Source: Minutocellus sp. GHC0000111
Lineage: Eukaryota
Reading direction: 5' to 3'
Assembly: GCA_977018835.1 (NCBI GenBank)
Contig: OZ361260.1
Coordinates: 1,612,001-1,676,000 of the forward strand
Length of the DNA stretch: 64,000 nucleotides
Part shown: positions 23,866 through 45,603 of the stretch, in pieces
Position numbering within the stretch: the first letter of the stretch is position 1
Layout: every line of letters starts with the position of its first letter
Notes under the pieces: generated by a model
What the model was told of the DNA's origin: nothing
The model's input: the letters and a program-made list of their open reading frames with translations, nothing else
Databases searched by the model: none
Program-made: the position numbers and the translations under genes

Positions 23866-26751
23866 ATGGCAGGGGATAATGCCGCATCCGCTGGTGCCGA
23901 TGCCACTCAGAAGCGGAACAGACGGCGGCGCAACAATGCCAACAACGCCAACAACAATACTCGTCACACCAACAAGCCCGCAGGTACTGGCGGCGGCGGT
24001 GGGAAGAAGGCCGGCCGACCAAGGAAGGGAAGCAAAGACGACGGTATGGGCGGCGATGGTCACAATAATGGCAACCCTGAAAAGAAGCAGCAGGCCAAAA
24101 ATGCGAATGGACATGGACACGGACACGGCAATGCTCATCATCATCAGAGGCACCACAACCACACGGCCCACCGGCATCATCACAAGAAGCCGGCGGCCCT
24201 CATGACTGTCATTATCAACCGCGTCGATCTGTACGACGGTGCCGTGGCCGCCAAGGTTGCCAGAGAAGAGATGGAGGAGGCAGCGGAAGCTTCGGGAGGC
24301 AATGCTCACAATGTCAATGCAGGTCTTGATCAGCAATCGCAACAGGCGAATAATACCAATACTCGCAATAACGACAACAACAATGCCATGAGCGCCGAGC
24401 AGAGGTCGGCCATGGAGGCCGAGGCGGAGCTGATGGCGGCGGCCCAGGCGGCCATGGCGGCTGGATTGGGCGGTGGGCCAGGCGGTGGTCCACCACTGCC
24501 ACCGCCACCACCACAGGCACAACAACAGATGCACCCGATGATGCATCCACAGCATCATCCACAAATGATGATGCCGCCACATCCCATGCATCATCCGATG
24601 CCTCCCTATCCCATCCAACCTCACCAAAACCCCCACCAGCCGATGAACCATAACAATATGATGCCAATGATGATGCCACCGCAGCCACCGGTGATGCATC
24701 CTGGTAATCCCACTCTGCCTGGACAGGGAGCAGGAGGAATGTCTATGCATCATCCACCACAGATGATGCCGCCGCACAATAACATGAGCGGAGGTGGGGG
24801 GATGATGATGATGATGATGGGAGGTCCACAAGGAGGTGCAATGATGATGCCCCCTGGCCCTGGCTACGTGGACCAATTTGGCCGACCATTGCCGCCGCCA
24901 CAGCCGCAGTCTCAACCCCAATCGCAGCCTCATTCTCAACCTTCCAGTAAGCATCCCTCGGCACCGCCATCGCCGAAATCGCAGCCCTCATCGGCCGGAC
25001 CGACCCCACCGGCCTCTCCCAGCCTAAAGCCGAAAAAGGAAAAGAAGAATAACAAGAAGCAACAGCATCAGCATCATCATGGATATCCGGCCGTTTCGCG
25101 CTACTACTTTCGCGCGGCCTCGACGGCCACGGCGTCGTCAATTGGAGATGACGATTACTACTACTCGTGCGTGTCCGATGCCGATCAAGCCGGCGACGTC
25201 AGTGATCGCGGTGCAACGAGCGAGCCCGTCCCCTCAGAGTATTCATCTCATGACCACCACGGCGATAACGGAACCGGTGGTGGTGATGATAAGGGGGGAA
25301 ATGACAGTGGCGACGCTACTGCTACCGATACTGCAGGAGGAGGAGGTAAGGACGGGGTGGCGGTCGTCCGTGCTCCGCATCTATCCCACACGAAGCAGTC
25401 CTGCTGTGTCAATTTATCCCACTTTTCGGGGGCGCACTCGCATTATTGCACACCCAATCCGTACGGTGCTCTTCCAGGATGTGAGATGGTGGTCGATAAC
25501 ATCACGCCCAATCCTCATCCGACGTGGGCCGTTCACAACAAGTACTGGGCTCAGCGTCGGCGCTTGTTTTCCAAATTTGACCAAGGTATCCAGCTCGATA
25601 GCGAGGGGTGGTATTCTGTCACCCCAGAGATCATTGCAGATCACGTCGGTGCAAGATTTGCCCAGCTCAGCGCCGCATTTGCAGCCCGGGGTTGCGGTAG
25701 TCGTTTGCCTTTTATGAACGGAGGCGGTCAGCAGTATGGTAATGATCCTCTAGGCCTTTTGGGCGGTCCGGGGCCCGATGATACCGGAAACATGAGTGGT
25801 GTAAATGTCGATATATCGACCGGTGGAGGTGGCTTGGTTATGCTCGACGCATTTTGTGGATGCGGAGGCAACTCGATCGCTTTTGCAAAGCTCCCATCGA
25901 CGTATGTTTCACAAGTGGTATGCGTTGACTTGGATCGCAACAAGCTTCGCAATGCAGCCCACAATGCGTCGATCTACGGTATTCCCACCGACAAGCTCAT
26001 CTTTATCGAATGCAATACTCTCCGTGTCCTCGAAGGTTGCTATCGCCATGGTCGTCGGGGTGATCCCGCAGACAGTGGGTATTCCCGCGAACCTGACCTC
26101 GCCGCCGCCGCAGTTGAACGCGTCGCTGGTTACCTCATCGGCGGGGAAGACTTACTCCCTCCCCACATTGATGCTGTCTTTATTGACCCTCCGTGGGGTG
26201 GTGTAGACTACTATGGCCAATGCGGAAAACATGGCTACGATTTGGAGAAGAACATGAAGATTAAAAGGGACAAGGGAAAGGATGACAATGATCCTTCTCT
26301 CGCGAGAACGAATAGTGTGAGGAAGCTATCCGGTGCTAGTTCATGTGACGAAGACTTGCTGGGACCCCCCCTTGAATCTGCAGGAGAGCAAGATGCTGGC
26401 GACAATAATGGCAGCGGTGGACTTGATGCCTTCTTCGATTCCTTTGATACCGGTCCAGCGCCAAAAGTATCCAGAGCTCTGGGCGCCAAAACCATGTCGC
26501 AGACCTGTCGCGACCTCGCCGGCGAGGATTGCGTGGATGGCGCCGAGCTACTCAAAATTGCAGCCGAGGCGACAAGGAGTCGAATGGTATTGTATGATAT
26601 GCCCAAGAACACCAACAAGGAGTCTCTTGGAAAGGCCGCTTTGGCAGCTGGTTATCGAGGAAATATCAAACTCGAAGAACATTATTTGAATGGGCGTTTG
26701 AAGACCGTCACAGCTTACCTTTCGAGTTCAGAGGATTTGAAAGTGACGTGA
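23866..26751 (+). CDS. TGS1: Trimethylguanosine synthase; last about 10 codons supplied by an inserted transposon
   Basis: KYWAQRRRLFSKFDQGIQLDSEGWYSVTPE, DAFCGCGGN, DPPWGG; long M/P/Q/H low-complexity N-terminus. Confidence 0.92.
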   Translation: MAGDNAASAGADATQKRNRRRRNNANNANNNTRHTNKPAGTGGGGGKKAGRPRKGSKDDGMGGDGHNNGNPEKKQQAKNANGHGHGHGNAHHHQRHHNHTAHRHHHKKPAALMTVIINRVDLYDGAVAAKVAREEMEEAAEASGGNAHNVNAGLDQQSQQANNTNTRNNDNNNAMSAEQRSAMEAEAELMAAAQAAMAAGLGGGPGGGPPLPPPPPQAQQQMHPMMHPQHHPQMMMPPHPMHHPMPPYPIQPHQNPHQPMNHNNMMPMMMPPQPPVMHPGNPTLPGQGAGGMSMHHPPQMMPPHNNMSGGGGMMMMMMGGPQGGAMMMPPGPGYVDQFGRPLPPPQPQSQPQSQPHSQPSSKHPSAPPSPKSQPSSAGPTPPASPSLKPKKEKKNNKKQQHQHHHGYPAVSRYYFRAASTATASSIGDDDYYYSCVSDADQAGDVSDRGATSEPVPSEYSSHDHHGDNGTGGGDDKGGNDSGDATATDTAGGGGKDGVAVVRAPHLSHTKQSCCVNLSHFSGAHSHYCTPNPYGALPGCEMVVDNITPNPHPTWAVHNKYWAQRRRLFSKFDQGIQLDSEGWYSVTPEIIADHVGARFAQLSAAFAARGCGSRLPFMNGGGQQYGNDPLGLLGGPGPDDTGNMSGVNVDISTGGGGLVMLDAFCGCGGNSIAFAKLPSTYVSQVVCVDLDRNKLRNAAHNASIYGIPTDKLIFIECNTLRVLEGCYRHGRRGDPADSGYSREPDLAAAAVERVAGYLIGGEDLLPPHIDAVFIDPPWGGVDYYGQCGKHGYDLEKNMKIKRDKGKDDNDPSLARTNSVRKLSGASSCDEDLLGPPLESAGEQDAGDNNGSGGLDAFFDSFDTGPAPKVSRALGAKTMSQTCRDLAGEDCVDGAELLKIAAEATRSRMVLYDMPKNTNKESLGKAALAAGYRGNIKLEEHYLNGRLKTVTAYLSSSEDLKVT

Positions 26752-29700
26752 TGATGACGTATTAGAAACACGACCACACCAGACCAAAAATCCAAGCTCA
26801 CTTTTTCTAACTCCGAGGAATAAATGACGGCCAAGATGGAAGTCGGGGCAAGAACCAAGTTATGGTCACCAACTTCTACATATAGTCGAGAGATATTGTG
26901 CACCAGAACCAATAAATGTACATTATGTGATGATTTTTTTCGACATTTGCATTCCTCACCCCGGGAAAAAATACATTTTTGGAAGCACCAAATCAAAATG
27001 TAATGAATAGAAATGGACATGCTATGATAAGTTATAGCAAATCAATGACTCCATCGTCTTCATCATTTTCATCTATGTCGTCCTCAATGTCATCATCTTC
27101 GCCGGGAGCATCAATTGGCCAGAGTGGTTCACCATCCTCTTCAGCTTCTTCCTCGGCAATTTTTGCGCGAGACCAGCCTTTCCCCGTCTGGTCTCCACAA
27201 GATTGTTACCGCCACGACTCCTCTTGATGTTGTTATATATCACTGGAAGTTTTCCAAATACATTGAGAAAGGCCTCTTTTGATGCGACATTGGCCCATAC
27301 TTTCATCACAGTCTTGTCAAGAGCATTCGCATCATTCTTCTGACCGCGATGCTCCTTTTCGACGGCCGACTGCAAAGACATCCAGATGCCGAGATCAAGA
27401 ACATTTGTCTCGGGCGACCGAGGAACCTGCTGGATTATCTCAATCTTATATTTGTTTTTGAGGTCCTCGGTGTACTTCTCAACTGCTTCATTGGACCCAT
27501 GACCGCCGGCATTGTCCATCATAAGATATATAACATCAGACTCCTCAATATTTTGTGGATCCCACTTCACCCAATGATGTGCGTCTCGAATCGCCTTCCC
27601 GACCTCATTCATAGTCTCCAACATCCATTTGGAGTCGCAGCTACAGTCCTTGGTAACCTTATCGCCCCGTTGACACCGCACCCCGAGCTCAAGGTCGTCG
27701 ATCTCAACCTTCACCTTCTCTCCATTGCTATCAGGAGTGTGTCGCTTGAGACTCGAGATCTTTTGATTGTAGCCAACAGCGGCATGCTTGCGACTTTTTG
27801 CCTGACCGTCGGATTTATAGTCCTCGTATTGAAGTTCCAATCGCTCTGTAACAAACTCAGAAAGGCCGTAGATTTTTCGGCAATGTGGTCGCAAAGATGG
27901 CCGGCGGTCATGTCAGCATTCTCGTCGTAAATGTCGCGCCAATCTTTGTCATTTTTTAGCGCATCGTTGACCTTAGCATCTGGAGAGAAATTCTGATTAC
28001 GCGTAAGCTTTTCCACCTTCTGCTCCCTGGCGACTCTCTTGATCATGATGCGCCCATTGAAATCAACGTCTTTGGTTTCATCCTTCATTGGTCGGCCAAC
28101 AACTCCAAGATACATGACTTTGACAGGGTGTCTTCTGGATCGAATTTTCGGGCTTGCCTCGGAAGCATGGATAGACGCGAGGTTCGGACTGCTTAGTTCT
28201 TCGTCAGAAAGTGGCAACATCTTGATGTTTCGTCGCCGAGTAGTAGTGTAAAACCACTTTTCATCAAGATACGCTACAGGAATGTTGGGATCGGTCGCAA
28301 TGTCCTCCCACTTTTCGGTCCAATCAAGTCGCTTCCTACAATATTCGGGGGGGTGAGCCTCGGCTTCTCGATCGACGACTTCTCCTTACCGCCTTGCTTT
28401 TTCCACCAGCGAAAAAGCTGAAGACGATGGAGACTAATTGTCAGCCTATCTTCATCTGGAGTAGCTGATTTTGCGCTCATGCAGTCAGCTAGCTCCTTAA
28501 AGGTTGCCATCGCACCCTTCATCCGAGTAGCATGCCGACACAGCTCGCGGAGACATCCTGGCTCCTTCTCCTCGATCATGTCCGTGCATGCCTTCCTTCC
28601 ACGAACCTCCTTTCTGCCGATGGGATTGCTGATGCCATCAGCAAGGCTTTTGTAGAGCTGGTCTCTCCACTTGTAAAGCTGAGAACCACCGGTTGACTTG
28701 GCATAACCGTGATCGTGCGCAACTTGCCGACACGCGGCAGTTGCAATTTGTTGCCGGTCTTCACACGTGCGAGTTGGGTCGCCGCATCCCCACCAATCCG
28801 CGAGAGCCACGGCGCTGAACCGCATTCTTTCATTCGCCTGCTTTTCTTTTCTGATTGGTATTGGTTCGGTGACGGTTGCATTGGGACGAGGAGGACGGAG
28901 CATGTCATCGTTGGCCATCCGAACAACAAAGTCGAGGCCGAGAGCGACCTTTACCTGTTCATCAATGTCACTGGAGGTGGCACAGACAACGGAAGTATCG
29001 GCTCCTCCTAAACCTTCATCACTGGGGGAGGCTGCAGCTGCTTCAGTGGCGGAAGTATCACCAGTTCCCTTCAGCATGCTGAGGAGACTTGCTGGCATCC
29101 AACCCAGTTTCTTGGCCTCGTCGACTAGTGATTTTACTACTCTTGCTTCGCAATGCGCTGACTGCACCTCCTTTCTGTGAGCTGACAACCTCTCACCTAG
29201 CTTAGTAGCTAAGACAGTCGAGCGCCCAGAGAACAGAACTTCATCGGGATTTCTTTTCTCGTGCACCTTCTGTCCCTCCGGTCCAGAGAATTTCGGGTGG
29301 TTGTCCTCCTTCTTTTTACGCAACCTGTGAGCACAAACATGAAGCGCCCTGCGTCTTGTCTTCCCTCTCGGCCGACACGCCGACAAGTGCAACTTCAAAC
29401 TACAATGCTCCTTGAGATGTTGCTGCATATCCTTCCATTTTTCCTCGTTGTACTGTAGCTCATACTTTCCTCCACCGACGGACTTGGAACGCAACAAGTC
29501 GGCCTCGATGAAAGCAGGGAGGACGTCTTCCCATTTCTGCCGAGAACCAACACAAATGTCATCTTTGCCGCAGGAATCGGGGGTCACTCTCCACCACAGA
29601 TCCTTACCAGCCCTTCGAATGACATCTGCTGCAAGGAGAAAGGCCATGGGGATAGGAGGAGGGGCCGTCCTCTTCTTCGCCGACGACGGTGACGGTTTGG

Positions 29701-30165
29701 CGGGGGCGAATTTGACCGTGGCCGCTTCTTCGACGTGTTTGCGCTCGGCGATGGTGTTTTCGGCTCAGCTGCCGCCTTTGCCGCCTTCCTGGATGCCTTG
29801 GTGTTGCCTCTCTTGCTCCCTGAGAACGAAGTTCTGCTGCGTTTGTATTTTTTGGGCGTGGTCTGGTTGGTCGTCGTCATCGTCACAAAATTTGCGGGTT
29901 GCGGTGAGGGTGTGCGGGGACCAAAAAATATATGTGTTCCTGCCAGAATCTACTGGACCTGCGAATTCAGTGGATACTACTGGTCGGTGGCAACCTACTG
30001 AATGAGCAGGTCCAGTAGATATCCACGAGTTGAGGAGTATTTGCGTTCCTCCCGAAGAGAATATCGACTAACAAAACACGTGGTGGGAAATGAGAAATGG
30101 GTGCAAGAATGACCTTTTTTAGGGGTTATTGGTATACCCTCTACAAATCCTCTGAAACCGAAAGG
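26718..30165 (-). mobile_element. Tc1/mariner superfamily DD39D-type transposon (3448 bp)
   Basis: 22-bp TIRs at 26718-26739 and 30144-30165 (20/22 match); TA TSD at 26716-17 and 30166-67. Confidence 0.92.
27032..29880 (-). pseudogene. DD39D transposase with long N-terminal extension, frameshifted
   Basis: YLDEKWFY, KVMYLGVVGRP, MMDNAGGHG-x-QVPRSPETNVLDLG (39 residues between D2 and D3). Frameshifts near 29700, 28350, 27870 and 27170. Confidence 0.88.
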
Positions 30166-30201
30166 TACTTGGGAACTGACTTCAGCGACTTACTGCACTG
30201 A
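30166..30201 (+). other. TGS1: Displaced original 3' end of TGS1 (YLGTDFSDLLH*)
   Basis: Removing the element and one TA restores GCT TAC TTG GGA ACT GAC TTC AGC GAC TTA CTG CAC TGA in frame. Confidence 0.85.
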
Positions 30202-30289: not shown

Positions 30290-33200
30290 CTATTTTGTTG
30301 ACTGTCGAAAAAAGGTAAATAATTTCTGACCACTCAGAGGACCGATGAGTCGCTTTAATTCGTCTCTTGACATCTCCGCAAGGTCAGCGATGGTATCACA
30401 GTGCATCATGATTGTTCTGGCGTTCTGAACAGTAATACCCGGAAGCCGCAGGAGCATGTCCCTGGCGGCTTCATTGATTTCATTTTCGTCCTCGGCATCT
30501 TCGGCTTCCTGAGATTGGTCCATCCCCAACAGAGCATCAAGCGATTCATTTGACCCAATCTCAATTGCCCTGTCGATGTCAGGTTCGTCATGATTCTCCT
30601 TGAGCAATTTGAAGATTCTAAGAGTTTCGTGAGGCGACCGAGACCACAAAATACGGAGCTTTGGAAAGTGCAAAGCCAGAATACTCATTTTTGAACAAAC
30701 TGCATCGCTTCGAATGTCACCTCCAATGTCATTGCCACTCTGAAGACAGAAGGATTTACTTGGATCGAATTCAATCAATAGGATTGGACATTTGTAGTGC
30801 TTGCACATTGCTTCCGCCTGAGTATAAAGTCTACCGGAAGCAAAACTACCAAACAAATCGGATATACTCTTCCTCTCAACGCAGTGTACTTTTGAGAGGA
30901 CGAAATCGCCGACGGTGAGAGTCGCCGGTGCCAAACGCATACCGCCCTGGTGCAATATTGACGGCAAGGCTGACCTAAACTCTCTCACATCAACGCAAAT
31001 CTCTCGCCGCTGCTGGTTGGCAGTTGACTTGCCACGCCCAGTCCGTGTGTCCATCGAAAGCGGTAGAGATCCACCCGCGTAGGATCCTGCAGCTCCTCCC
31101 ATGGCAAGCTGCATTTCTTGTGTGGCAGTATTAACGGTATTGAGTGGCATTGGCATAGTCTTTTTGTGTTGAATGAGACGCTCAAAAGCCTTCTGCTCAC
31201 GTTCGAGAGCCTTTAAAAAATTCTTTTCTTCAGAGGATGCCTCAAACAACATGAAAAATACTCGCAAGCGATCATGCTTGGAAATGTCGGTGGTGCTGGC
31301 ACCAGCACCAGCGGAATCACTCTGTTCGTCCCCGACTTCTTTGGGTGGCCCTTCATCGGAAATTGTCGGTGCAGCTGCAGCTGCAGCTGCAGAAGTGCTT
31401 GCATACATCTCGAGAGATCGCACAAAGGCAGGCTCGGCATCGTACAACACAACATAATCAGGCTTGATATCGTCCAGCATCAAATTTGTTTGGTCCCCTT
31501 CGATGCTAGAGTATGTTCGAATAACGAGACGAAGCTCGTCCAAATTCCCAACCTTGTATGGGAGTTCATCCTCTTCGTCAGAGTAAACATCGCCACTGGA
31601 CGATGAATCTACATCGCGCTGATCGGTGGCCTTCACATTATACCCAGTTCCAGCAAGGAGATCTTGCTCTGTCTCTTCGAGTGCTTCGTCCAATACTGCT
31701 CGGCGTTGTATGTCCTCGGCCTGCATCGTCCGATCACCACGGCTCTTTTCTGTGGCGATCCGGCGCTGTTTCCTTTTCCAATCAGGCACAAATGTCGGTT
31801 GCTTCCGTTTCGCACCAGCGTGCTCAGATCGATCAGCTTCAGCACCAAAGAGAAAATTGCGCGCTCGGCCTTCTTCTTCCAGCAGTAGGCGACTTTCTTC
31901 CGATATGGCACTCGAACCGCCTGCATTTCGAGCGACGGCTCTGGATCTATCATTTATCTGCTCCAGGTATCGAACCCAGCGAAGTGTCATGATTCGTTCC
32001 TTTCCCTCTATCAAGTAGGTCCGAATTGAATCCAAAGTTCGTTCATCTTTGACCATGATCAATACTCTAGCCCCACCGGCAGTCCCCGATCTACCCGCAC
32101 GGCGATGATGATCCTGCCTCTCTGGCCAATCGTTGCGAATTTCGATAACAACTTGGGACAAAAGCCTCCATTTTGGGTTCTCTTCCAAGATTGGTTTGAG
32201 GCGAGAGACTGGATTCGGCACACGCTTTGTAGGTTTCGGTTTGGCGACCTTGAAGATTCGTTCCCTGGCCTTGCTGAAAATAATCTCACCAGATGCATCC
32301 AATATCCACATGGACGGATTCCGTGCTCCGGCCGAAGCCGTTTTGATGCTGTTGATGAGTTTATAGAAACTGATACAGTCGTAATGGATCAAATACTGGA
32401 ACAGTGTGCGGAGAGTCCGCAAGTCATTGACAAGTTGCTTCGTCTGTGGCGATAGTTTATGCCAATCGTGTTCTAATTGACGTGAGATTTGCATATCAAA
32501 ATTCGTAGTAACACAATTCTCCAGAGTAAGGTCCGAGGATGACCATTCGATGAGGGATGTGGATTTCTTTAACTCACGTATGCATACCTGTACTGCAGCA
32601 GCGATGGCATTTTGTATCTCCTTCATGGCCGGAGTAAGTTGCTGATGAAGCTCATCGACATATGGGGGGCATTGTTCCAATTCTGACGCAACAACATCGT
32701 GGAAACGAGGGTACAGATACAGCCTCCGCACGTGCAAACTCTTCAATATCTTGTCCACCTTGGCAAAACCTGCCATCAGAGCGTCGCAGTTATCGGTAAA
32801 GGCCTTGACAAAGCCATGTGGTGATGGAGAGAGCGACGATGTTCGCGAAACCGCTCGAACAGCATCTGGCATGCCAACCGTGGCGGTCGAAACCATTGAG
32901 CTACTGTTGCCATTGCCAGCTCCAGCTCCACCACTGGCAATCCACTGCTTTTGAGTTCGGTAGATGCGTAAAATAAAGGCATCGGTCGATTGCTCCGTGA
33001 CATTCTCAGCATGAGCCACCAAGATGCCTTCAATGTCTCTAGGATTGGCCACCTGAGTCAGTAAATCCACAATCAATATACGACTGGTGATGAGGAATAT
33101 CCCTCCCCTCTTGTACATGGTCTCACGATCCTTACCCTGACCAGACTCATTGGTCACCTCGGTGGGTAGCAATTCTGGTGGTGTTCCCCAATCCACCAGT

Positions 33201-33652
33201 GTTGATACCAATGCCTTTCGCTCGGCATCCTTGAGACCAAGGACAAATACCAACGGAGGTGTTGATCCCGCTGCCGTCGCCGCCGGTACAGCAGGTGCTT
33301 GTGAGGATGCTGCCGACGTCGTCGTCTGTTGCAGACGCTCATTCTGCTGCTCCTCCCTCACCAACGCGGCATGACCGTCTGGTCCAGGATCGGCGTAAAA
33401 CCGGACGAATGTCGCCAAGAGAAGCATCGTCCCCAACCCTCTGCCCAACACAGCGAGACCATCCTCGTGATAGAGCTCCTCGAACGCCTCCATGAGGTAA
33501 GCTGGGAGACGTGCCTGAATCATGGGCGCCTTGCGAAATGAGGCAGACGAGCCAGAGGAAGACGTTGTGCTTTGCTGCTCATCATCGTCTTCACTACCAC
33601 CGTCCACCAACTGGACTTCTTCATCTCCCGAGGAGCCTTCGTCGTCGGACAT
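30290..33652 (-). CDS. ERCC4: DNA repair endonuclease XPF/RAD1
   Basis: ITSRILIVDLL, LEENPKW, VDVREFRSALP, VGDFVLS, VERKSISDL, C-terminal HhH LLRLPGI. Confidence 0.95.
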   Translation of the reverse strand: MSDDEGSSGDEEVQLVDGGSEDDDEQQSTTSSSGSSASFRKAPMIQARLPAYLMEAFEELYHEDGLAVLGRGLGTMLLLATFVRFYADPGPDGHAALVREEQQNERLQQTTTSAASSQAPAVPAATAAGSTPPLVFVLGLKDAERKALVSTLVDWGTPPELLPTEVTNESGQGKDRETMYKRGGIFLITSRILIVDLLTQVANPRDIEGILVAHAENVTEQSTDAFILRIYRTQKQWIASGGAGAGNGNSSSMVSTATVGMPDAVRAVSRTSSLSPSPHGFVKAFTDNCDALMAGFAKVDKILKSLHVRRLYLYPRFHDVVASELEQCPPYVDELHQQLTPAMKEIQNAIAAAVQVCIRELKKSTSLIEWSSSDLTLENCVTTNFDMQISRQLEHDWHKLSPQTKQLVNDLRTLRTLFQYLIHYDCISFYKLINSIKTASAGARNPSMWILDASGEIIFSKARERIFKVAKPKPTKRVPNPVSRLKPILEENPKWRLLSQVVIEIRNDWPERQDHHRRAGRSGTAGGARVLIMVKDERTLDSIRTYLIEGKERIMTLRWVRYLEQINDRSRAVARNAGGSSAISEESRLLLEEEGRARNFLFGAEADRSEHAGAKRKQPTFVPDWKRKQRRIATEKSRGDRTMQAEDIQRRAVLDEALEETEQDLLAGTGYNVKATDQRDVDSSSSGDVYSDEEDELPYKVGNLDELRLVIRTYSSIEGDQTNLMLDDIKPDYVVLYDAEPAFVRSLEMYASTSAAAAAAAPTISDEGPPKEVGDEQSDSAGAGASTTDISKHDRLRVFFMLFEASSEEKNFLKALEREQKAFERLIQHKKTMPMPLNTVNTATQEMQLAMGGAAGSYAGGSLPLSMDTRTGRGKSTANQQRREICVDVREFRSALPSILHQGGMRLAPATLTVGDFVLSKVHCVERKSISDLFGSFASGRLYTQAEAMCKHYKCPILLIEFDPSKSFCLQSGNDIGGDIRSDAVCSKMSILALHFPKLRILWSRSPHETLRIFKLLKENHDEPDIDRAIEIGSNESLDALLGMDQSQEAEDAEDENEINEAARDMLLRLPGITVQNARTIMMHCDTIADLAEMSRDELKRLIGPLSGQKLFTFFRQSTK

Positions 33653-34001
33653 GCTGCCTGATCAACTTCTTTATTCCTCTACCAATTTTTAGATCAAGCT
33701 TTGCCACGCGACGTTATGCAAATTCGGTGCGCCCGGCAAGCAGGGGGGTTGACAGTTGACAGTGCTCTCGCGATGTGCCGATGGCGGTTTGCGCCAAAGG
33801 AAGTCGTTTCTCCTTGACGTCATTTTCCTCCGCCCCTGCCGATGCCGCCTGCAGCTGGACCAACGGTGCTTGTGGTGAGCATTGACCCTGTCCAAGCTAA
33901 GCATTGGCCGACTCGACTTATTGTCTACATTTGCCCAATGAGCACCAGCATGAATCAATAACAGTGGGCGTGGCGCGGTGCTTTCGTCGTAACGCAGAAT
34001 A

Positions 34002-36362
34002 ATGAGACTAAGACCCTCCTCTGGCGGTGCTGAACGCCGACCACCCTCACAGTACCACCAGCACCTCCGACGAGGGACCCGCTTCCTCAACGCCCTGTCC
34101 TCCATGCTCCTCCCTTTATTGGAATTTGCCATCTTTGTCCAGCTAGGGGCATTCTTTGCCTACTTTGTGTCGATGCCAGAGATTAGACCCACCAACGTCG
34201 TGTCAAGTATGCGCAAGGCAGCCGATGGCGTAATGAGAACAAGTTTGCATCAAATCAAGGTGGGAGAGTATGGAGGAATGGAATCATTCTACGACGTCCG
34301 TCTCCGGCAGGTGCAGGATGCCATACGATCGCAGTATCTTTTGTCAGCTGTGAACAGCGAGGATCGGCTATCCTCGAGGAAGAAAGGCCAGGAAATTGAC
34401 GTGAAACCAGAGACCAATGGAGGCATAGAGGGTTTGACTGCAATGCTAACGGAGCGAGTTGTAGCAAATTGGAACAACAAGAGCAATGTTGACGATGGGT
34501 CTATCAAATCTTGCTATGAATATGATGGGACTTCATCGACTGTGATGCTTTCTGACAAGTGCAAATCTCTACACTTGGAGACGCCAACACTGGTCGTTTT
34601 CAACCCACTCCCTCGGAAGAGGGAATGGTGCAGTCACATTATCGAGGCTGGCCAGGTACTTGCAATGGAAGACATTTCGTCGTGTCAAGAGGATTGGATG
34701 AATTTGGCGGTATATCCACCACCATATCTCGTCAACAGTGACGAAGATGACGCGATCGAGGTTGTTACGAGTTCATTCTTTGGAAGTTCGGACGAAATAC
34801 GGAAACTTACTGATTGCGATGTACCGTGCACGTGGAAGGGCGCACCTTATGGTTCCTTCAAAATATCAGGTACCAAATGGGAATTCACACAATCGGCAGA
34901 AGGTCCACAATACTACGAAGAGCTTGTCATCGACCCGAAAGCTCACCTTGGCGACCGATACTACTCCACAACCTCGTTCCAGTCTGAAATTCCGCTGCCA
35001 TATTTTAGCTTCTCGGAATACAACATAAAAAATCCGAAACATGTGCCATTCGACAAGGGGATCAAGGGAGCATCGTTCATTGCCAATAATTGTGACAGCA
35101 AGAATAATCGGGAGGCGATGGTAAAGGGTATTATTGCTTCAGGATTTCGAGTGGATTGCCTTTCTGGCTGCTTACATAATGCAGAACCACCGTATGGGCT
35201 GTCGTTGGACAACAAGAGAAAGCTCATGAGGCAATACCTTTTCCATTTGGCATTCGAAAATCAAAATGAAGACGATTATATCACAGAAAAGCTATGGGGC
35301 AGCTTAGAAGCTGGGATAATCCCCGTCTATCTCGGCGCTACCAACGTGAGGCTGCACGCACCCGAGGGTTCGATCTTTGTAGCTGCTGAATTTGCATCGC
35401 CGCAACTTCTCGGGGAATACTTACAGAAAGTGGCAAATGATAGAGAGCTCTACGAACAATACCATGCTTGTCGCAAGGAAGAATTCTCAGAAGCATTTTT
35501 GCAAAAATATAACTTTACTCGAACACACTCTGAGTGCAGAACTTGTCGATGGGCCTTCGCAAAGAAAAGGGGATTGGGATGGGATCATAAGACACAGAGC
35601 ATTGCTTCGCTCCGCCTTTCCCGCGAGGTTTGTACCGATGATATGAGTGGGCTGGCTTCAAGACCCTTCAAGGAATCTTATTTGCTCTATGATTCAATGG
35701 AACAGCAGTATGAGGACGCCCAAAGCCACAAAATTGTTGAAGGAGTCTCAAAATATGCACCAGATCCAACAGCAGCGAAACATCCTACATGCAGTAAACG
35801 AGGGGTTCAATCATCGCTCGTCTTTAGTCATCATGAGATTGAACGTTCGCTGGTGGAACACGATGGAGTTGTCGATGTAATTATCGCCATCAAACATCGC
35901 CATATGCGGAAGGGATCTGTTATACCACCCTTGTTCCTTCGATTAGAAACTGTAATCAGAAATGGGAGAGAATACCAAACTGCGTCTGATCACAGAACTC
36001 CAGTGTCGAAACGAACGTTCAATGGGGCGGATAGTCACCACTGGCAGTCAAAACCAGATGGTATGCGCTACATGATGATTCAAGATCCCAAAGCCAGGAT
36101 CTCTGTGTGGACAGACTGGACGACTCAGATGCTAAGCACTGTTGAAGGGTCCATCGACATACTGTTGTTACCAGGGGATGTTGTCCAGACAAACCACCGT
36201 CACCATCAAGCAGAGACAACATATCGCAAGATTCGAGTAATTTTGGAGGATTCCAACCCTTTGCATTACGACACAGACTTTGGCTCTCCGACTTATTTTT
36301 CAAAGCAGCACGCAAAGGATTTTTACCATCCGCTCGAGATCTTTTACGCTGATGGAGGGTAG
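34002..36362 (+). CDS. Alpha-1,3/4-fucosyltransferase (GT10)
   Basis: SFIANNC, YLFHLAFENQNEDDYITEKLW, IPVYLGA; N-terminal TM. Confidence 0.9.
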   Translation: MRLRPSSGGAERRPPSQYHQHLRRGTRFLNALSSMLLPLLEFAIFVQLGAFFAYFVSMPEIRPTNVVSSMRKAADGVMRTSLHQIKVGEYGGMESFYDVRLRQVQDAIRSQYLLSAVNSEDRLSSRKKGQEIDVKPETNGGIEGLTAMLTERVVANWNNKSNVDDGSIKSCYEYDGTSSTVMLSDKCKSLHLETPTLVVFNPLPRKREWCSHIIEAGQVLAMEDISSCQEDWMNLAVYPPPYLVNSDEDDAIEVVTSSFFGSSDEIRKLTDCDVPCTWKGAPYGSFKISGTKWEFTQSAEGPQYYEELVIDPKAHLGDRYYSTTSFQSEIPLPYFSFSEYNIKNPKHVPFDKGIKGASFIANNCDSKNNREAMVKGIIASGFRVDCLSGCLHNAEPPYGLSLDNKRKLMRQYLFHLAFENQNEDDYITEKLWGSLEAGIIPVYLGATNVRLHAPEGSIFVAAEFASPQLLGEYLQKVANDRELYEQYHACRKEEFSEAFLQKYNFTRTHSECRTCRWAFAKKRGLGWDHKTQSIASLRLSREVCTDDMSGLASRPFKESYLLYDSMEQQYEDAQSHKIVEGVSKYAPDPTAAKHPTCSKRGVQSSLVFSHHEIERSLVEHDGVVDVIIAIKHRHMRKGSVIPPLFLRLETVIRNGREYQTASDHRTPVSKRTFNGADSHHWQSKPDGMRYMMIQDPKARISVWTDWTTQMLSTVEGSIDILLLPGDVVQTNHRHHQAETTYRKIRVILEDSNPLHYDTDFGSPTYFSKQHAKDFYHPLEIFYADGG

Positions 36363-36869
36363 ATCCTAGACTAGAGTCCTAGAGAAATTCCTAGCCATAA
36401 CGAACGATGAGAAGATACATGTGGATCGAAAAGAATGTTGAAGTAGGAATTACTAGCAGTTCAGCACATAGATCACATAGATCTACCAGTCGGTATCTCG
36501 TACTTACATGTAGTTACATGTAGATCTTCGTTAGGGATGGTTCATTGCCGATACGACGTGTAGTTCATTCGATTGATTCGATTTTCATTCTCGCCCATTC
36601 GACCGGTACTACTTCTACGGTACGTACGGTCACCACGCACGAAGTCCGCTCGGCCGCGCGCCTTCTTCGCCTTCCACGTTGCGGCTCCGCCAAGAAGCAA
36701 ACGACACATCTCCAGCATCCTCTTCCTTTCCCATCGTTGCCTGAAATATGTGCAGCAAAACATCCAAAGAGACCAACAATAAAAGCAAACGGCGGCAGAA
36801 GAAGGCCACCGCTTCCAGCGACGCCGTCCCTCCACTGTCTTCGGAACCGGTCGTTGGCGACACGAAAAA

Positions 36870-38570
36870 ATGTCTCCCCCCTCACTTCAAATACGACGAA
36901 GAACAAAGCGAACGAAGCAAATAGGTGTCTCATCTCTTCAAAAGCACAATGCCGCAGTAAGATTACAAACGAGTAAATCATCTTCTTCGTCGTCTCCAAA
37001 GACAAAGCGAAGATCCCGGGCGAAAGCCAAGCACGAAGCGGACAAGCCCAGCGGTGGTGTAGAAGCAATTCTTCCCTCGCTCGGCATTGTTGCCGTCCTT
37101 GGCTTCGCCGTTATGGCCAAGATGGGCTTCCGTGGCAGAGCCGATGTAGCTGGAATCGATTTGGGCACCACCAACTCAGTCGTGTGTGTTCAATCTCCGC
37201 TGGAATCGGCCGGTCAGGGTGGAGTGGGAAAGATTGAGTGCATCCCCGATCCCGCCAATGGTTCTCCGATCGTTCCTTCGGTGGTGTCCTTTTTGGACCA
37301 TGTTCCTGGCAGTGGAAGCGGTAGTGGTGATGACCGGCCGAATGTCGTCGTCGGACACGAGGCCAAATTGCGCATTGATACGCATCCTCATCACACGCTC
37401 TACCATGCCAAGCGCGTCATTGGACGTTCGTTCAGTCATGATTCCGTCAAAAGCCTGATGGAGGAGGTCGAATTCAATGTCGTACCGGTGGTGGAGGAAG
37501 AGACAGAGGCCACTAGCGGTAGCGAAGAAGAAGAAGGCGTCGCATTCCGCGTTCCGTATCATTCGACAGCTCCTGATGGCACTGATACACACAAATACCT
37601 TCACATCAAGCCTCAGCAGGTCGGCTCGTATATCGTTGATCATCTGATTTCCATGACGAAGAAGTTTCTGGGGCATGAGAATGTCAAGACGGCGGTCATT
37701 GCCATCCCGGCCAAGTTCAGTAACGAGCAACGAATTGCGACTGTCCAGGCTTTCACTGATGCAGGAGTCAAAGTTGCTCGTATCCTCGAAGAACCCACCG
37801 CCGCAGCTTTGGCATATGGCCTCGATAAGAAGGACGGTGTCAATCACATTATGGTTTACGATTTCGGCGGAGGTACGTTAGACGTTAGCATCTTACATGT
37901 GAGCGATGGTGGATACGTCGATGTTATGGGAAGTGATGGAGACAATCGCCTTGGCGGGGCGGACTTTGATGCGGCAGTGGCTCATGCCCTCATGAAAAAG
38001 GATGGTGGGGATAAGACCGTTCAGCGTGTTACCGATGCGTTGGAGACAATCGAAGCGAGGCTCAAAAAAGAGGGTGTGGTGGACGCTGAGGATGACCTTG
38101 AGGAGATTTTGGCCGAGGGGTGTCCAGTACTGGAAGAAACACCCCCCTGTACCCTTTCTTCTTTCCATACCATTGGCGAAAAGATGAAGATTGGTCTCTC
38201 GGCTTATCCCGATGGTGGAGGAGTCGTTGAGGAGAATTGCCTTGGCCTTTTGGCGAAGGATAAATCCAAGCCCGAGACCATTAGGGAATTCTGCTCGGCA
38301 TTAAAGCCCATCAAACTGAGCCTTTCATCGAAGGAGTATGATGCAGCGGTGCCAGATCTTTACCGTCGCTCCATGCTGCCCATCCAGCGATTACTCGAGG
38401 ATCTGAATCTGAAGACCGACGAGATCGATGAGGTTGTAATGGTTGGAGGTACTACGCGAATGCCCAAAATTCGCGACATGGTGCAAAAAGAGCTTGGCAT
38501 CGAAAACTTAAACACTCATATTGATCCTGATCTGACCGTAGCATACGGTGCTGCCTCTGTAATTGATTAA
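36870..38570 (+). CDS. Hsp70-family ATPase lacking the substrate-binding domain (HSPA13/STCH-like)
   Basis: GIDLGTTNS, EEPTAAALAYG, DFGGGTLDVS, MVGGTTRMP; the protein ends at VAYGAASVID; TM segment before the NBD. Confidence 0.9.
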   Translation: MSPPSLQIRRRTKRTKQIGVSSLQKHNAAVRLQTSKSSSSSSPKTKRRSRAKAKHEADKPSGGVEAILPSLGIVAVLGFAVMAKMGFRGRADVAGIDLGTTNSVVCVQSPLESAGQGGVGKIECIPDPANGSPIVPSVVSFLDHVPGSGSGSGDDRPNVVVGHEAKLRIDTHPHHTLYHAKRVIGRSFSHDSVKSLMEEVEFNVVPVVEEETEATSGSEEEEGVAFRVPYHSTAPDGTDTHKYLHIKPQQVGSYIVDHLISMTKKFLGHENVKTAVIAIPAKFSNEQRIATVQAFTDAGVKVARILEEPTAAALAYGLDKKDGVNHIMVYDFGGGTLDVSILHVSDGGYVDVMGSDGDNRLGGADFDAAVAHALMKKDGGDKTVQRVTDALETIEARLKKEGVVDAEDDLEEILAEGCPVLEETPPCTLSSFHTIGEKMKIGLSAYPDGGGVVEENCLGLLAKDKSKPETIREFCSALKPIKLSLSSKEYDAAVPDLYRRSMLPIQRLLEDLNLKTDEIDEVVMVGGTTRMPKIRDMVQKELGIENLNTHIDPDLTVAYGAASVID

Positions 38571-38614
38571 AACCATGCTATCCCCAGCTACTAGTAAAGC
38601 TAGATGCTATTAAC

Positions 38615-40168
38615 CTATCCACGCCTCTTATCAAGATGCTCACTACCATCCTTTCGGATTTGCTGTCGTTTCTTCCCTCTTCTCCTCTTCTGGTGTGTCG
38701 GGGCTGAAAGGACCTTTTCGAGGGCTAGGTCTGCAATGGCCACCCGAGATTCTGCGTCGTCCTCACCTCGTATCACTGTGGCTAGCAATGCCAATTTTCC
38801 CGCAGTGTTGAGACATCTTACATATCCAGCCAAATCATAAGAAGAAGGCAGAGGGAGTGAAACAAGGCCGACCTATCTGTGGGGTCCACAACCTCGGCAC
38901 TTTCATCCAGAGACTTATTGCCAGCAGACGTACAACTGAAAATCCGAAGACCAGCGAATGCGTGTCGCTCCTCTCGGCTTCCATCGTACAGCAATAGATC
39001 GCATCCAAACTTTGAGCCACAGGCCACGTGGAGATTTGTTTTTTCTGTACAAGAGCTTGTAAACAAGGGCAATATCATCGTCGAAACTAGGCAATCCAGA
39101 TCGAGTCGAAATAAAGTCCCATCGCTGTTTCTCTTCCTCTCTTCTTTCTACTCTCTTCGAGCTGTCTTTGTCATCCTCTTTGCTATCGGTCTGATCTGCT
39201 TTGCATATATTTTGACTGTCACCGAGAAGACTTTCCGGTCGCAATCGGTGCCATGCTTCTGGAACGATTCGATACGCCATTGGTCGCATATCTTCCCGAG
39301 ATCGGACTTCTTCGGCAACATTCATGGCCTCCTGAAGTGTCGAGGCCCAAAGAAGACTCAAGGGCTGATCCATTTCTTTGATTTCATCATCATGGCTGCT
39401 TCCAACACCTGAGGAGCTCGCTCTGCGAATAATATCATTGTGCAACGCCTCGTCTACCATCGGAGCCGAGAGTACAACCGGTGGGACTCGATTCGATGCG
39501 CCCAAAAGCTCGGCAACTTCCTCTTCAATTGCAGCTTGACTTACTTTCATGGCGTAGTAATTATCATCGGAAGATATGCTCTCGCTAGTTTCATTCGAAT
39601 CGACGATAGGAGCATCATCATCATCATCAGCTATCATAGCATCAGCACGCTGATCTTTAATCTCCTCCTGCTGCTGTTTCTTGATCTGCTTTAACATGGC
39701 CAGCCTCTCCTTCATGAGCTGTGCCTTCTTTTTCTTCTTTTCCTTTTTGGTCATCCGCCGTTCCACTCCATCCTCATCTGTCGTCATGTACGAAACCTTG
39801 GTCGGATGCATAAGTTCCTCATCTGTGAACATTGCAGATCCAAACTTTCGGTTAGCCGATCCACCAGCACCATTCGCTTGACAATCATATTGAGAATGGA
39901 CGTCACTGCCGCTACTGGCTTCGCCTGGAGCAGCAGCAGAAATATGGGCCGCAAGTATTGCTGGGAGGCCCCGTTTTTTCAGTGCTTCCTTCACGGCTTG
40001 GCTGGATGGACGGACTCGACGGACACCGACATGAGTTGGTGGCAAACGGGCTTCATTGGAAGAGAGGTGGCTTGTCAAACTTGAGGAGAAGACGATGGCG
40101 GCAGTAGCTGCGGCTACCTCGGTGAGACGGGTTCCATCTGCTTGCACAGACGGCGCCATGGGAGCCAT
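38615..40168 (-). CDS. tRNA-splicing endonuclease catalytic subunit (Sen2/Sen34-like), two apparent frameshifts
   Basis: GSKFGCDLLLYDGSREERHAF and YVRCLNTAGKLALLA are spread over three ORFs (40168-39050, 39045-38862, 38858-38615). Confidence 0.7.
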
Positions 40169-40297
40169 TGCTTGCCAAAGAATAAATAAATGCACGCGAC
40201 ATTGCACGCGATGGTCCGATTCATGGTTTTGGTGACGGAAAGACGCACTCCTCGAATGAATAAAAATCAGGTCCACTGACTCAACTCTAAATTACGA

Positions 40298-40317
40298 AGG
40301 GTTAGGGTTAGGGTTAG
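40298..40317. repeat. Interstitial telomeric repeat (TTAGGG)3
   Basis: AGGGTTAGGGTTAGGGTTAG read directly. Confidence 0.85.
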
Positions 40318-40406
40318 TGTACGAGTCAATGGACTCAACGGATGGCCCCTTGCAGCGAATCAACTTGCAAGCCATGTTGCCTACAGCTACGCGCACGTGT
40401 CCCATA

Positions 40407-41465
40407 TCATGACAAAGCCTCGCGAATCGAAAAGTCCGGGAACGTTCTGCTTTTGAGCACATCCGCCACCGACTTGTTCTCCTCCCTCTTTGTAGGTTTA
40501 ACGGGTTGCATCTTCTGCACAGCTTCTTCGCGCTTTTCTTCTCCGAATTCATCTACAATTGCGTCTCCAGCAATGCCGATATTTTTGGCAGTCTCTCCCT
40601 GTTCTGCTACCTTTTCTCGCCTTTCCTTGGCTCGTCTCGCACGGGCCCTCCTCCCCTTGCCTTGAAAAGGCTCTGATCTTTCCATAGAATTGTTGGATAC
40701 ATTGGTTTTACTTTCGCCCTTCTTTACGCTAACACCCTGGCCACTGGGCCTACTTGCCCCTTGTTTGATATCGAATTTGGAGGAAGATTTTGCCTGCGAA
40801 GCAGCCAAAGCTCGGCCCAATGACGAAGTGGAACCCAACGATTTGAGAGGTTTCTTCACCTCTTGCTTCGTATGTTTTTCTCCTTTGCCGCCACGCAAAT
40901 CATTAGCTTTGGCCAAGGCCCTCTCCTCTCTTGCCTTGATCTCTCTTTTAATCCTAGCTCTTCTTGCTCTCGCCTTCCTTCCTTTGCCCTCGAAAGGAGC
41001 TGGTCTGGTGGTCGTCTCCTGCCTGCCAATATCACCGTCGCCACTGTTCTCCATAGTGAGCATAGATTCGAGATCACGAAGCTCTCTTGCCAAATCCTCC
41101 ATAGCAAGGCCCTCCAGATTTTCAATCTCGCCGTCGAGGCTAAGCTCGTCACCGTCGTTATCGTCGATGGAGCTGTAGCTCCCAACATCGTCGTCGCCAT
41201 CGTCGTCATTGTCACTGTCTTCGTATTCATCGTCCATACTGTGGCTGCTTGAAGTAGCACTGCGAACAGCAGGCGCTTTTGTTGTAGCGCCAGCAGGAGT
41301 GCCCAAATCTTCTGACGGCTGCTGGTTATTTAGGCGCTCAATATCCTCGATACTTTCGTTGAGTGTGGCATTTAGTTCTGCCTCTGCGTCGGCGAACATG
41401 GCCTCAATGCTGCCGCCATTGGCGGAAAGTACGTCATCATCTTTTTGTCGGCGGGAGGTCGACAT
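40407..41465 (-). CDS. Hypothetical charged protein with a duplicated basic motif
   Basis: Long ORF; acidic N-half; PF[EQ]GKGR[KR]ARARRA occurs twice. Confidence 0.6.
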   Translation of the reverse strand: MSTSRRQKDDDVLSANGGSIEAMFADAEAELNATLNESIEDIERLNNQQPSEDLGTPAGATTKAPAVRSATSSSHSMDDEYEDSDNDDDGDDDVGSYSSIDDNDGDELSLDGEIENLEGLAMEDLARELRDLESMLTMENSGDGDIGRQETTTRPAPFEGKGRKARARRARIKREIKAREERALAKANDLRGGKGEKHTKQEVKKPLKSLGSTSSLGRALAASQAKSSSKFDIKQGASRPSGQGVSVKKGESKTNVSNNSMERSEPFQGKGRRARARRAKERREKVAEQGETAKNIGIAGDAIVDEFGEEKREEAVQKMQPVKPTKREENKSVADVLKSRTFPDFSIREALS

Positions 41466-41833
41466 GTCGAAAATGCGCACCAAGCAAGCAAAAGGACTGA
41501 CACACCTGCAGCAAAAAAGATTCACTGAGAGAGAAAAGCGCCCACCATCTGTTGAATTACAAACTCACGGCACTTATCGACGGCGTTACCGCGCCGAAGA
41601 GAAAGCTTGATGCCATGTCATCGTCATGCAAGCTGCACGGATTATTGATTCTTGTTTCTCTCTGACATCACTTCTTCCCGCAAACCGCCACACGGCCCAC
41701 CAGTAATGCAAGCTGCTGGTAATGCAGCAAGCACATCTACGTAGCTACGTAGCTAGGTTCCTACGTGTACTGCATGTGCCTGCTAATGCTATCATAGTCA
41801 CCAAGACACGCCATGTATTATATTTTACCATTT

Positions 41834-42856
41834 CTATAGAGCGGCTGAGAATGCACTTTTCCTTGGAAAGAAGCACAGCCGTTGGATCCAATTTCCTCCT
41901 TCCCAATATGTAAAGCCATAATAAAAGAGTATCACCCCAAACAAATAGCCATTCGAGATCGCTCTGCGGTAGCCATGCATACGAGAGGATACATTAAGGT
42001 AACCAAAGTCAGGTAAGCCCATGTAGTTGCAGAAGGAATGACAAAGGACGACCGCAGGTATGGACCCAGTTCGAATAAACGCATGTGCTGCGTAGGCCCC
42101 AAAGAGCGAAGTATATGCAAATTGAAACAGCGTCATCATCAAAACCGATTTTGGATTCAACCCTTCTCGTATCTTGAGTACAGCATGGTGCAAATGCGCC
42201 AGGCCAAAGAACAAGGGAGCAGTCCATGCCGTGGCAACTGGGCTCAGACCTGACTTGAGCAATTGCATGACTATGCAACCACGAAACACAATCTCCTCGG
42301 CGAGTGGCGCCACCACCAAATCTCGTGCCTTGCCCCATTTGGACGACGATTCAGCTTCTCGAAAGAACGACATGGTAGGTTTGATTGCAATTTCTCGAAA
42401 TGCTTGAATGTATCCAATCGATTGCTTTCTGGGTGTGCAGGAGAAGGCACCTACAAAATGCGTCTTTGCCAAGTGAAGCCTTGCCAGTGCAGTCATGATC
42501 GGACCAAGATATAAGGTCATAACATGAAGCAATACTGCCAGATCCCTCCTTGTGTCCCAAGACCAACCGAGGTAGCGCAAGGCGTTGGTGGTGCCATTAA
42601 CCACCCTGCCGCCATCGTCACTACCGCAAAACAAGGTTGGGTACAGCAGAGACGCCACGAGACACGTCAAGAATACCAACACCATGCGCCATTTTATTTG
42701 CCGTTCGTCCTCCCTTGACAAGCGTCGGATATCCTTGGGGACAACGTAAAGGCCACCGACGAAGGCAGAGGAGAGGGCAATGCAATACACGGCCACGTAT
42801 GTAGGAGATGGGTTGGAATGATGACAAGACGAGAGGAGTGACGATGGGAAGCTCAT
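41834..42856 (-). CDS. RCE1: CAAX prenyl protease 2
   Basis: APLAEEIVFRGC, FFGLAHLHH, FQFAYTSLFG, HSFCNYMGLP. Confidence 0.93.
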   Translation of the reverse strand: MSFPSSLLSSCHHSNPSPTYVAVYCIALSSAFVGGLYVVPKDIRRLSREDERQIKWRMVLVFLTCLVASLLYPTLFCGSDDGGRVVNGTTNALRYLGWSWDTRRDLAVLLHVMTLYLGPIMTALARLHLAKTHFVGAFSCTPRKQSIGYIQAFREIAIKPTMSFFREAESSSKWGKARDLVVAPLAEEIVFRGCIVMQLLKSGLSPVATAWTAPLFFGLAHLHHAVLKIREGLNPKSVLMMTLFQFAYTSLFGAYAAHAFIRTGSIPAVVLCHSFCNYMGLPDFGYLNVSSRMHGYRRAISNGYLFGVILFYYGFTYWEGGNWIQRLCFFPRKSAFSAAL

Positions 42857-43179
42857 GTTGGTCAGCACGACGGCACGTTGCAATATTACTACGTAGTATT
42901 GTGATCGCCTCGCTAAACTTGTACAACAGCGTAGATAGCTACGTTAGCTTGTACTCGTCGCTGCGGGGGCACTTGAATATTTGATTCGACGCAGAGTAGT
43001 GGAGGAATAGTGGCGTGAGTGGGAAAGAAAATGAGATGAGGGGTCACTCTTTAGCAATCTGAAATCGTAACAACCACAAAAACTCCTTTTCCGCTTTTTC
43101 TGATCGCTCGATCGCTCGTGTCGATGTCGTCGCTCGCGGCTTTCAATCATCAACCGAAGGCGAATAAAAATTGGATAAA

Positions 43180-44120: not shown

Positions 44121-44253
44121 AAATTTTTGGCGTCGTGCAGTAAGTACTACATGCCAATTGCGGCTAGCTAGCGACAATCATAGAGACATGAACAAATTGC
44201 CAATAATAACTATCTCTATAGAACGCCATTTCCATTTAGAAATCAAACATTGC

Positions 44254-44712
44254 TCACGAAGAAGGCAACATCGTCATGAGCATATCAGTAATATCCTCTC
44301 GCTTGAAGCCTCGAAGCGAAACCTCCTCATCCGGTTCACTGGACTTGGTGCTGGTCTTGTAGAAATGAATGGTCGGAGGGGCGATGCGCATGCCACCGAA
44401 CAATGCCGCGAAGCCACCCATGTTGAACTGATTGTCATTCTCCACCTTCTCCAGAACGAATGCCTTTGACCCTTTCGCTTTTGTAACGTCTCCTTTGTCT
44501 TCGTTGAGAAAGTTTTGAACCTCGTCGTAACTACCGAGGCTCTCTGGGTCGTAGCGGAGTACAGCCAACTTATACCGACCGACAAATCCGGACGATGTTG
44601 CATCTGGATTGACCACGGGATCCGGTCGAAATTTCTGACAACACTGCAAGCATTCGGTTTCGAACTGAGCGATCGGATTTGGGCCAAAAGGCTGCTCAAG
44701 AAGTAATTCAGA
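44254..44712 (-). pseudogene. Sep15/SELENOF-like thioredoxin-fold protein, 5'-truncated
   Basis: ECLQCCQ...RYKLAVLRYD..L.SYDEVQNFL...EVSLRGFKREDI; no upstream ATG or signal peptide in frame. Confidence 0.55.
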
Positions 44713-45554: not shown

Positions 45555-45603
45555 TTTTGTAATTTTTCAGCAATCGCAATCACAATCGCAAGTAAATGAA
45601 TCG

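Follow-up and report, generated by a model that had tools for sequence, protein, structure and literature searches.

Transposon-restricted A-to-G mutation at TpA dinucleotides in a probable diatom

A Tc1/mariner-type transposon and its surroundings

The stretch of DNA analysed here (the window) comprises 64,000 nucleotides of contig OZ361260.1 of Minutocellus sp. GHC0000111. Near its middle lies an element of 3.45 kb that has the TA target-site duplications and short terminal inverted repeats of the Tc1/mariner (IS630-Tc1-mariner) superfamily. Its features are listed below.

26718..30165, minus strand: Tc1/mariner-type DNA transposon, present in hundreds of copies, insertion polymorphic
26716..26717, no strand: left TA target-site duplication, from the sequence; the joint has three letters that fit either side
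30166..30167, no strand: right TA target-site duplication, from the sequence
26718..26741, plus strand: left terminal inverted repeat, about 24 bp
30142..30165, minus strand: right terminal inverted repeat
28274..29647, minus strand: 5′ piece of the transposase, 457 residues, the heavily mutated part
27711..28385, minus strand: middle piece of the transposase, with the first catalytic Asp motif YLDEKWF, in another frame after a 2-base insertion
27073..27912, minus strand: 3′ piece of the transposase, with the MMDNAGGH and SPETNVLDLG motifs, lightly mutated

Contigs of two sequencing runs (X1 and X9) carry the empty site and skip exactly 3450 bases here, and the insertion is therefore polymorphic. 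Contig depth over the element is far above that of its flanks, the element end is found with differing flanks in other contigs, and a single protein cluster of the family has 275 members. Contigs of the RNA runs likewise cover the element far more deeply than the host genes, and these contigs may be DNA.

The transposase is a single frame, which exceeds 830 residues in the relative P0022. In the window copy, it is broken by 2-base insertions at 28347, 27873, and 27165, all of which are private or nearly private to this copy. The first-pass annotation had set an N-terminal against a C-terminal ORF; the contrast in mutation load stands, but the two are pieces of one transposase frame and not separate ORFs. 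Three acidic motifs are visible in the pieces, and we take them to be those of the DDE/D family. A Pfam search with the three transposase fragments gave no relevant match, and the Atlas neighbours, which serve as a lead only, are DDE_3/Tc1 clusters (0.83-0.85), one of them commonest in Bacillariophyta.

The transposon sits within the last codons of a long host ORF, 23857-26751 (window positions 26690-26751 and 30166-30200). The frame of this ORF runs into the inverted repeat, such that its last 10 residues read LSSSEDLKVT, compared to LGTDFSDLLH in the empty allele. Its product is RNA-cap methyltransferase-like and is presumably TGS1, a name that we assign from its motifs. Upstream of the transposase, an inverted repeat at 29948-30020 (24-nt arms, 92% complementary, with a 25-nt spacer) is a possible hairpin or regulatory site. 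Two further regions of the window have the look of mobile DNA. The broken minus-strand frames at 52950-54000, where TA observed/expected is 0.44, resemble what we take to be a PIF/Harbinger-type transposase. The region 47400-50400 is free of long ORFs, contains a short segment present twice (GFGGKRVVDR in translation), and is not depleted in TA (0.66); it is probably another repeat.

Substitutions at TpA in the transposase family and in other elements

The scarcity of Tyr and abundance of Cys and His in the 5′ part of the transposase had been taken as the mark of hypermutation, and the underlying counts are confirmed exactly. The 457-residue frame has 5 Tyr, 14 Cys, and 13 His, the final 273 residues have 8 Tyr and 4 Cys, and 28501-29400 has 17 TA dinucleotides (put at about 17 before), an observed/expected ratio of 0.36. 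The same ratio had been proposed as a way to tell transposons from coding sequence, and here it fails, as composition does not separate transposons from genes in the window. TA observed/expected is 0.50 in the element, 0.40 in the focal block, and 0.49-0.59 in genes, and individual 500-bp bins of host genes fall to 0.29 (37001-37500) and 0.31 (20501-21000). It is alignment to homologues, not composition, that settles the observation. CpG observed/expected in the element is 0.93.

The search identified 20 relatives of the transposase, 17 at 84-99% identity and three at approximately 50%. At columns where the distant relatives have Tyr, the close copies vary among Tyr, Cys, and His, and the window copy itself has lost most of its Tyr in the following segment.

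28481..29420, minus strand: focal block, with 9 of its 12 ancestral Tyr codons altered, from the alignment of family records

Six of the nine became Cys (codons starting at 29377, 28786, 28765, 28588, 28555, and 28540) and three became His (29341, 28717, and 28534); the distant relatives have Tyr at seven of these positions and no aligned residue at the other two. The three Tyr that are kept in the block are all in a YTAY context. The earlier derivation of the Cys and His residues from ancestral Tyr is correct for these 9 of the 12 codons and incorrect for two residues that it had also named. In ADCMS, all 33 copies and the outgroup share the Cys; in VAHDHGY, all 35 copies share the second His, where the outgroup has Gln.

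Taken across the family, the ancestral Tyr codons are represented by Tyr in 306 cells, His in 220, Cys in 216, and Arg in 1 (743 cells in all); at the 15 columns where Cys and His are both common, Tyr occupies 85 cells, Cys 172, His 200, and Arg 1. TGY and CAY are each one step from both TAY and CGY, and we conclude that TpA is the source dinucleotide because Arg is nearly absent and the outgroup has Tyr. The target is lost after one hit, Tyr having gone to Arg only in that one cell of 743. Mutation is also uneven along the element: within single records, RTAY sites are mutated at 50 of 139 sites located 5′ of 28100 and at 9 of 101 sites 3′ of it, with the same direction in 8 of 8 records.

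Searches of JGI metagenome contigs by protein and by DNA pattern yielded no DNA of sister copies, and a search of viral contigs yielded none for the second mariner-type element; the spectra therefore rest on protein records and on contigs of sequencing runs. Protein records were mapped onto the codons of the element, and amino-acid changes with a single one-base explanation were counted. Of 94 records, 89 had at least 100 mapped codons; five duplicates were dropped to leave 84, and codons at three mis-polarised sites were excluded. A spectrum made in this way sees non-synonymous changes only, ORF records under-sample mutated and frameshifted copies, and one copy may yield several records.

The polarised spectrum of these 84 sister-copy records is strongly enriched in TA>TG/CA, as had been predicted. 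Changes of the A>G class make up 681 of the 760 assignable changes, and 632 of them are at TpA. Per 1000 opportunities, the rate is 220 for TA>TG/CA, against 1.9 at AA, 0.9 at GA, 6.2 at CA (a value that is partly mis-polarised), and 0.6 for transversions, which places TA approximately 100-200-fold above the other A>G contexts. At TA itself, A>C (0.4) and A>T (2.1) are rare. Among C>T changes, CpG>TpG occurs at 4.3 per 1000 and the others at 0.4-0.9, including 0.7 before A. When the window codons are used as they stand, with no ancestral inference (76 records), TA changes run at 138 per 1000, the remaining A>G changes at 3.7, CpG changes at 4.8, and transversions at 0.6. The flanking bases grade the effect: RTAY is mutated at 484 of 1318 opportunities (37%), YTAY at 116 of 625 (19%), RTAR at 31 of 525 (6%), and YTAR at 1 of 407 (0.2%), roughly a 100-fold range from RTAY to YTAR. 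A per-site comparison of TAY (71 sites) with TAR (34 sites) gives p = 1e-9.

The second mariner-type element, the LINE, and the Helitron of the window had been said to carry the same change. Comparison with relatives confirms this for all three, in the Helitron only at the 3′ end.

57106..58812, plus strand: second mariner-type element; Tyr>Cys at 58216, Tyr>His at 57952, 58417, and 58429
63265..64000, plus strand: LINE reverse-transcriptase remnant; Tyr>Cys at 63601, 63622, and 63934; Thr>Ala, Ile>Val, and Ile>Thr at TA sites
4337..4744, plus strand: 3′ end of the Helitron helicase; Tyr>Cys at 4361, 4454, and 4567, Tyr>His at 4612 and 4742

In the family of the second mariner-type element (60 records), TA>TG occurs at 33 per 1000, with 55 of 1330 at TAY compared to 1 of 375 at TAR. 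This family has the same transversion rate as the focal one (0.6 per 1000) and a TA load that is 4- to 6-fold lower. The Cys of its IKYCGP motif is fixed throughout, and the named relatives of its transposase are from Cylindrotheca closterium (59%). Together with the Atlas cluster commonest in Bacillariophyta, these relatives point to a eukaryotic host that is probably a diatom; an Atlas search with the host XPF gene returned no taxon. The LINE was compared with P0336, an intact relative of 1132 residues, and with as many as 18 family records per column. One further change in it is CpG-type, a few are family variants, and RTAY accounts for 3 of the 50 TA in 62600-64000. Its Tyr codon at 63955 now reads CGT, both bases of one TA having changed, the event seen once among 743 cells in the mariner family. 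For the Helitron, the comparison drew on just 3 close and 147 distant relatives; its conserved Tyr residues upstream (2007-3708) are retained, and the mutated end is the one that lies closest to a gene. Four more transposase families (15 records each, mostly from the same long contigs) show Tyr>Cys/His in 66 of 388 cells, Tyr>other in none, and Arg>C/H/Q/W in 1 of 1005. The corresponding figure is 1 of 180 in a related LINE family whose records come from short contigs of other origin; collapse to a consensus may account for it. All of the targets examined are multi-copy elements.

Short insertions are also in excess. In-frame insertions outnumber deletions by 29 to 7 in the focal family (p = 3e-4); 21 of the 29 repeat a neighbouring residue. 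Short insertions in the copies are for the most part tandem duplications, 1-3 bases or one codon long. The window copies carry such duplications too, at 29135, at 58234, and twice in the Helitron end (4196-4215). The second mariner family has 4 insertions in 14,610 aligned residues, approximately 4-fold fewer than the focal family with 29 in about 23,600. Within the focal family, the number of insertions in a record does not correlate with its TA load (rho 0.11, p = 0.33), and the distribution of insertions by element region shows no clear match to the regions of TA load. The excess is suggestive of a companion signature of the mutator, and, for indels, assembly error is a possible source.

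Host genes and the accumulation of mutations across copies

The first-pass annotation had held that host genes are spared, and the genes next to the transposon served as the control.

30290..47350, no strand: host-gene control region, XPF and neighbours, with allelic differences that lack a TA bias

The comparison used the best-supported 40 of 84 differences around the element, 29 of which lie inside it, and for the host the best-supported 40 of 130 plus 7 more. Of the 29 element differences, 23 are polymorphic, and all 23 alternate among TA, TG, and CA states, representing 20 dinucleotides; the remaining six are private to the window copy, one of them again TA>CA. The 47 distinct host differences in this best-supported set comprise 24 transversions and 23 transitions, and three are TA-type. 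That host genes are spared is thus borne out in these best-supported subsets (3 of 47 against 23 of 23). The TA-type share of host transitions, 3 of 23, compares with 21% expected, and Fisher's test against the element (21 element sites) gives p ~1e-14.

Two local irregularities were seen in the control region. One contig of the RNA run skips 218 bases at 43320-43539 with non-canonical ends, which would fit a deletion allele or a small insertion rather than a normal intron. A deep X9 contig lacks one base at 32736 within the XPF frame, which is open in the window; this would be either a fault of the contig or a disrupted allele.

Both strands of the transposon are mutated (coding, 305 of 1533; template, 249 of 1061), and their excesses rise together from record to record (rho 0.71, 63 records). 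Single-burst editing of one strand is ruled out by this joint rise in each record. Individual records carry TA loads between 0 and 0.54. The load is overdispersed (variance of z 3.4) and is uncoupled from other substitutions (rho -0.08). Among 68 pairs of hot sites, only 2 show an association at p < 0.05, and 48 show all four combinations. With so little linkage between sites, recurrent mutation is favoured over inheritance from a small number of master copies. Recombination among copies could contribute to the independence of sites, and cut-and-paste copying of mutated donors may explain part of the shared variants.

Candidate causes and significance

We are highly confident that a TpA-specific, transposon-restricted process is real. 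Spectrum and family alignments together support what had been proposed for it, namely a transposon-directed TpA>TpG/CpA change in the A:T>G:C direction that is patchy and affects several classes of transposon. It had further been argued that RIP and 5mC decay cannot make this change. The conclusion is sound, given that Arg is near absent and the outgroup has Tyr; the argument offered for it was incomplete, since CpG decay of Arg codons also yields TGY and CAY. Fungal RIP resembles the present process in that dense, context-specific transitions ruin the coding sequence of transposons and spare single-copy genes. It differs in that RIP is C>T and makes TpA from CpA, whereas the process in the window destroys TpA, and the C>T rate before A shows no preference for CpA. 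RIP is set off by repeat homology during the sexual cycle. Derivation from Arg codons by CpG decay or RIP-like C>T would draw on the mildly raised CpG>TpG rate, but the third state at the variable columns is Tyr and not Arg, CpG is not the source (1 Arg in 743 cells), and the four additional families repeat the pattern (66 of 388 for Tyr, 1 of 1005 for Arg). GC-biased gene conversion among copies could shuffle variants and so mimic the independence of sites, but it would be expected to give A>G in every context, and AA and GA are approximately 100-fold lower than TA. We regard decay and conversion alike as extremely improbable. Sequencing or assembly artefact, for example long-read miscalls at modified bases, has in its favour that the library types of the deepest runs are off record, that the evidence consists of contigs, and that the window copy has several private small indels. 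Against it, identical element variants are shared by the sequencing runs of four studies, and an Illumina RNA run has CACA for the TATA of the window at 29929-29932 (three contigs), one direct short-read check. Families located on one and the same set of long contigs also have TA rates that lie 4- to 6-fold apart, and the host frames in the window are open, up to 1475 codons. An artefact is accordingly very improbable.

As to the cause, we propose a TadA/ADAT-like host adenine deaminase, as a candidate class only, aimed at silenced mobile DNA, and we judge the chances of this to be evenly balanced. Base-editing chemistry fits because the changes are pure transitions at one base within a tight, graded 4-base motif. 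The deaminase would convert the adenine of TpA to inosine in silenced mobile DNA, and replication would then fix G. In this scheme, the lesion would be made by an enzyme and would lie on the A rather than on the paired T; the motif is near-palindromic, and the data do not distinguish these two bases. Chromatin state rather than sequence would aim the editing, which would come in repeated low-dose episodes and would act as a defence by destroying Tyr, Ile, Thr, and Val codons. TadA and ADAT2 acting on DNA offer a likeness in that A is turned to I and read as G, and the early TadA-derived editor ABE3.1 prefers YAC (PMC12703980). Amphioxus BjADAT2 (of BjADAT2/3), described as the one natural ADAT2 shown to deaminate adenine in DNA, differs in preferring GAA rather than TA and in also deaminating C (PMC10354150). 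A deaminase alone leaves the excess of short insertions (29 compared to 7) unexplained.

Two other causes were considered. The mark could be a modified base, an oxidised thymine or a modified adenine, placed by an enzyme on TpA in silenced DNA and then mispairing or decaying in the manner of 5mC at CpG. Oxidised thymines pair with G, the T-strand reading of the motif, R-T-A, is equally consistent with the data, and strict dinucleotide specificity, graded flanks, and confinement to transposons are what would be expected of an epigenetic mark. Diatom transposons are, moreover, known targets of DNA modification through DNMT5 methylation (PMC9998398). Neither the sequence data examined nor the cited papers, as far as their text was available, show such a mark on TpA, and a TA load that is uncoupled from other substitutions fits a clock-like passive decay less well; we consider this origin unlikely. 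Error-prone synthesis by a Pol eta-like translesion or repair polymerase, or under weak mismatch repair, would act patchily on transposon chromatin, misinsert G opposite the T of TpA, and produce duplications by slippage. It would account for the insertions and their repetition of neighbouring residues (21 of 29), for a second family that at an equal transversion rate has both a lower TA load and fewer insertions, and for the patchiness within the element, which suits repair tracts. Somatic hypermutation by Pol eta does cluster mutations at the A of TA, but it follows a WA motif, so that AA is hit as well, and it makes A>C as well as A>G (PMC4686820). Neither pattern is seen in this transposon family, where AA>AG is 1.9 compared to 220 per 1000 and A>C at TA is as rare as given above, and the insertions do not follow the TA load per record. 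We rate this explanation, too, as improbable. A UV photoproduct at TpA was considered and dropped, as it would not single out transposons.

The first-pass annotation knew of no described system of this kind, a statement overtaken by Mettrop et al. (2026 preprint, bioRxiv 10.64898/2026.01.13.699255), who describe a signature limited to TpA in Bigelowiella natans. Of 231 mutations in two integrated viral regions, 230 were A>G/T>C, all on TpA, at approximately 1000 times the background rate and in only some lines (bioRxiv 10.64898/2026.01.13.699255). The targets are integrated NCLDV and virophage DNA, the large region being single-copy; TpA-poor genes there include DDE and reverse-transcriptase domains, from which composition transposons are inferred as targets. 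The authors propose an ADAT-type deaminase, with an ADAT2-like candidate that has a DNA-enabling Asn (bioRxiv 10.64898/2026.01.13.699255). Both systems consist almost only of A>G/T>C changes at TpA, hit both strands, and affect foreign or mobile DNA while sparing host genes; they may also share an uneven distribution between lineages. They differ in that the B. natans mutations arose de novo in a rhizarian on viral DNA, whereas ours are read from copies of DNA transposons, a LINE, and a Helitron in a probable diatom, where the flanks matter approximately 100-fold and short insertions are in excess. The main text of the preprint does not contain the words "diatom", "stramenopile", "polymerase", or "flanking" and gives no motif beyond TpA, although a wider one may be given in its Figure 2B or supplementary tables. 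A literature search by title and start of abstract, with subscription papers mostly outside its scope, found no report of the phenomenon beyond that of Mettrop et al.

Relative to the main text of the preprint, the action on multi-copy transposons, the RTAY-graded motif, and the repeated hits on both strands are new, as are a load uncoupled from other substitutions and the insertion excess (29 compared to 7). We have here an A-to-G mutator acting on ordinary transposons in a probable diatom, with copies enough to read its motif, its strand behaviour, and its insertion signature. The transposon-directed mutators RIP, 5mC decay, and APOBEC run from C to T. We tentatively suggest, as a picture that may well prove too broad, a diatom genome-defence system in which a natural dsDNA adenine editor (or TpA-marking enzyme) with an RTAY motif would be guided to all classes of transposon and would revisit copies, repair leaving short tandem duplications. 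Shared with rhizarians, it would be an old, SAR-wide mirror of RIP and a source of natural A-to-G editors. The enzyme could now be sought by experiment in diatoms amenable to genetics, and the search might uncover a DNA adenine deaminase from nature, whereas such enzymes have otherwise been obtained by engineering. In such genomes, the loss of TA distorts both the ages and the annotations of transposons.
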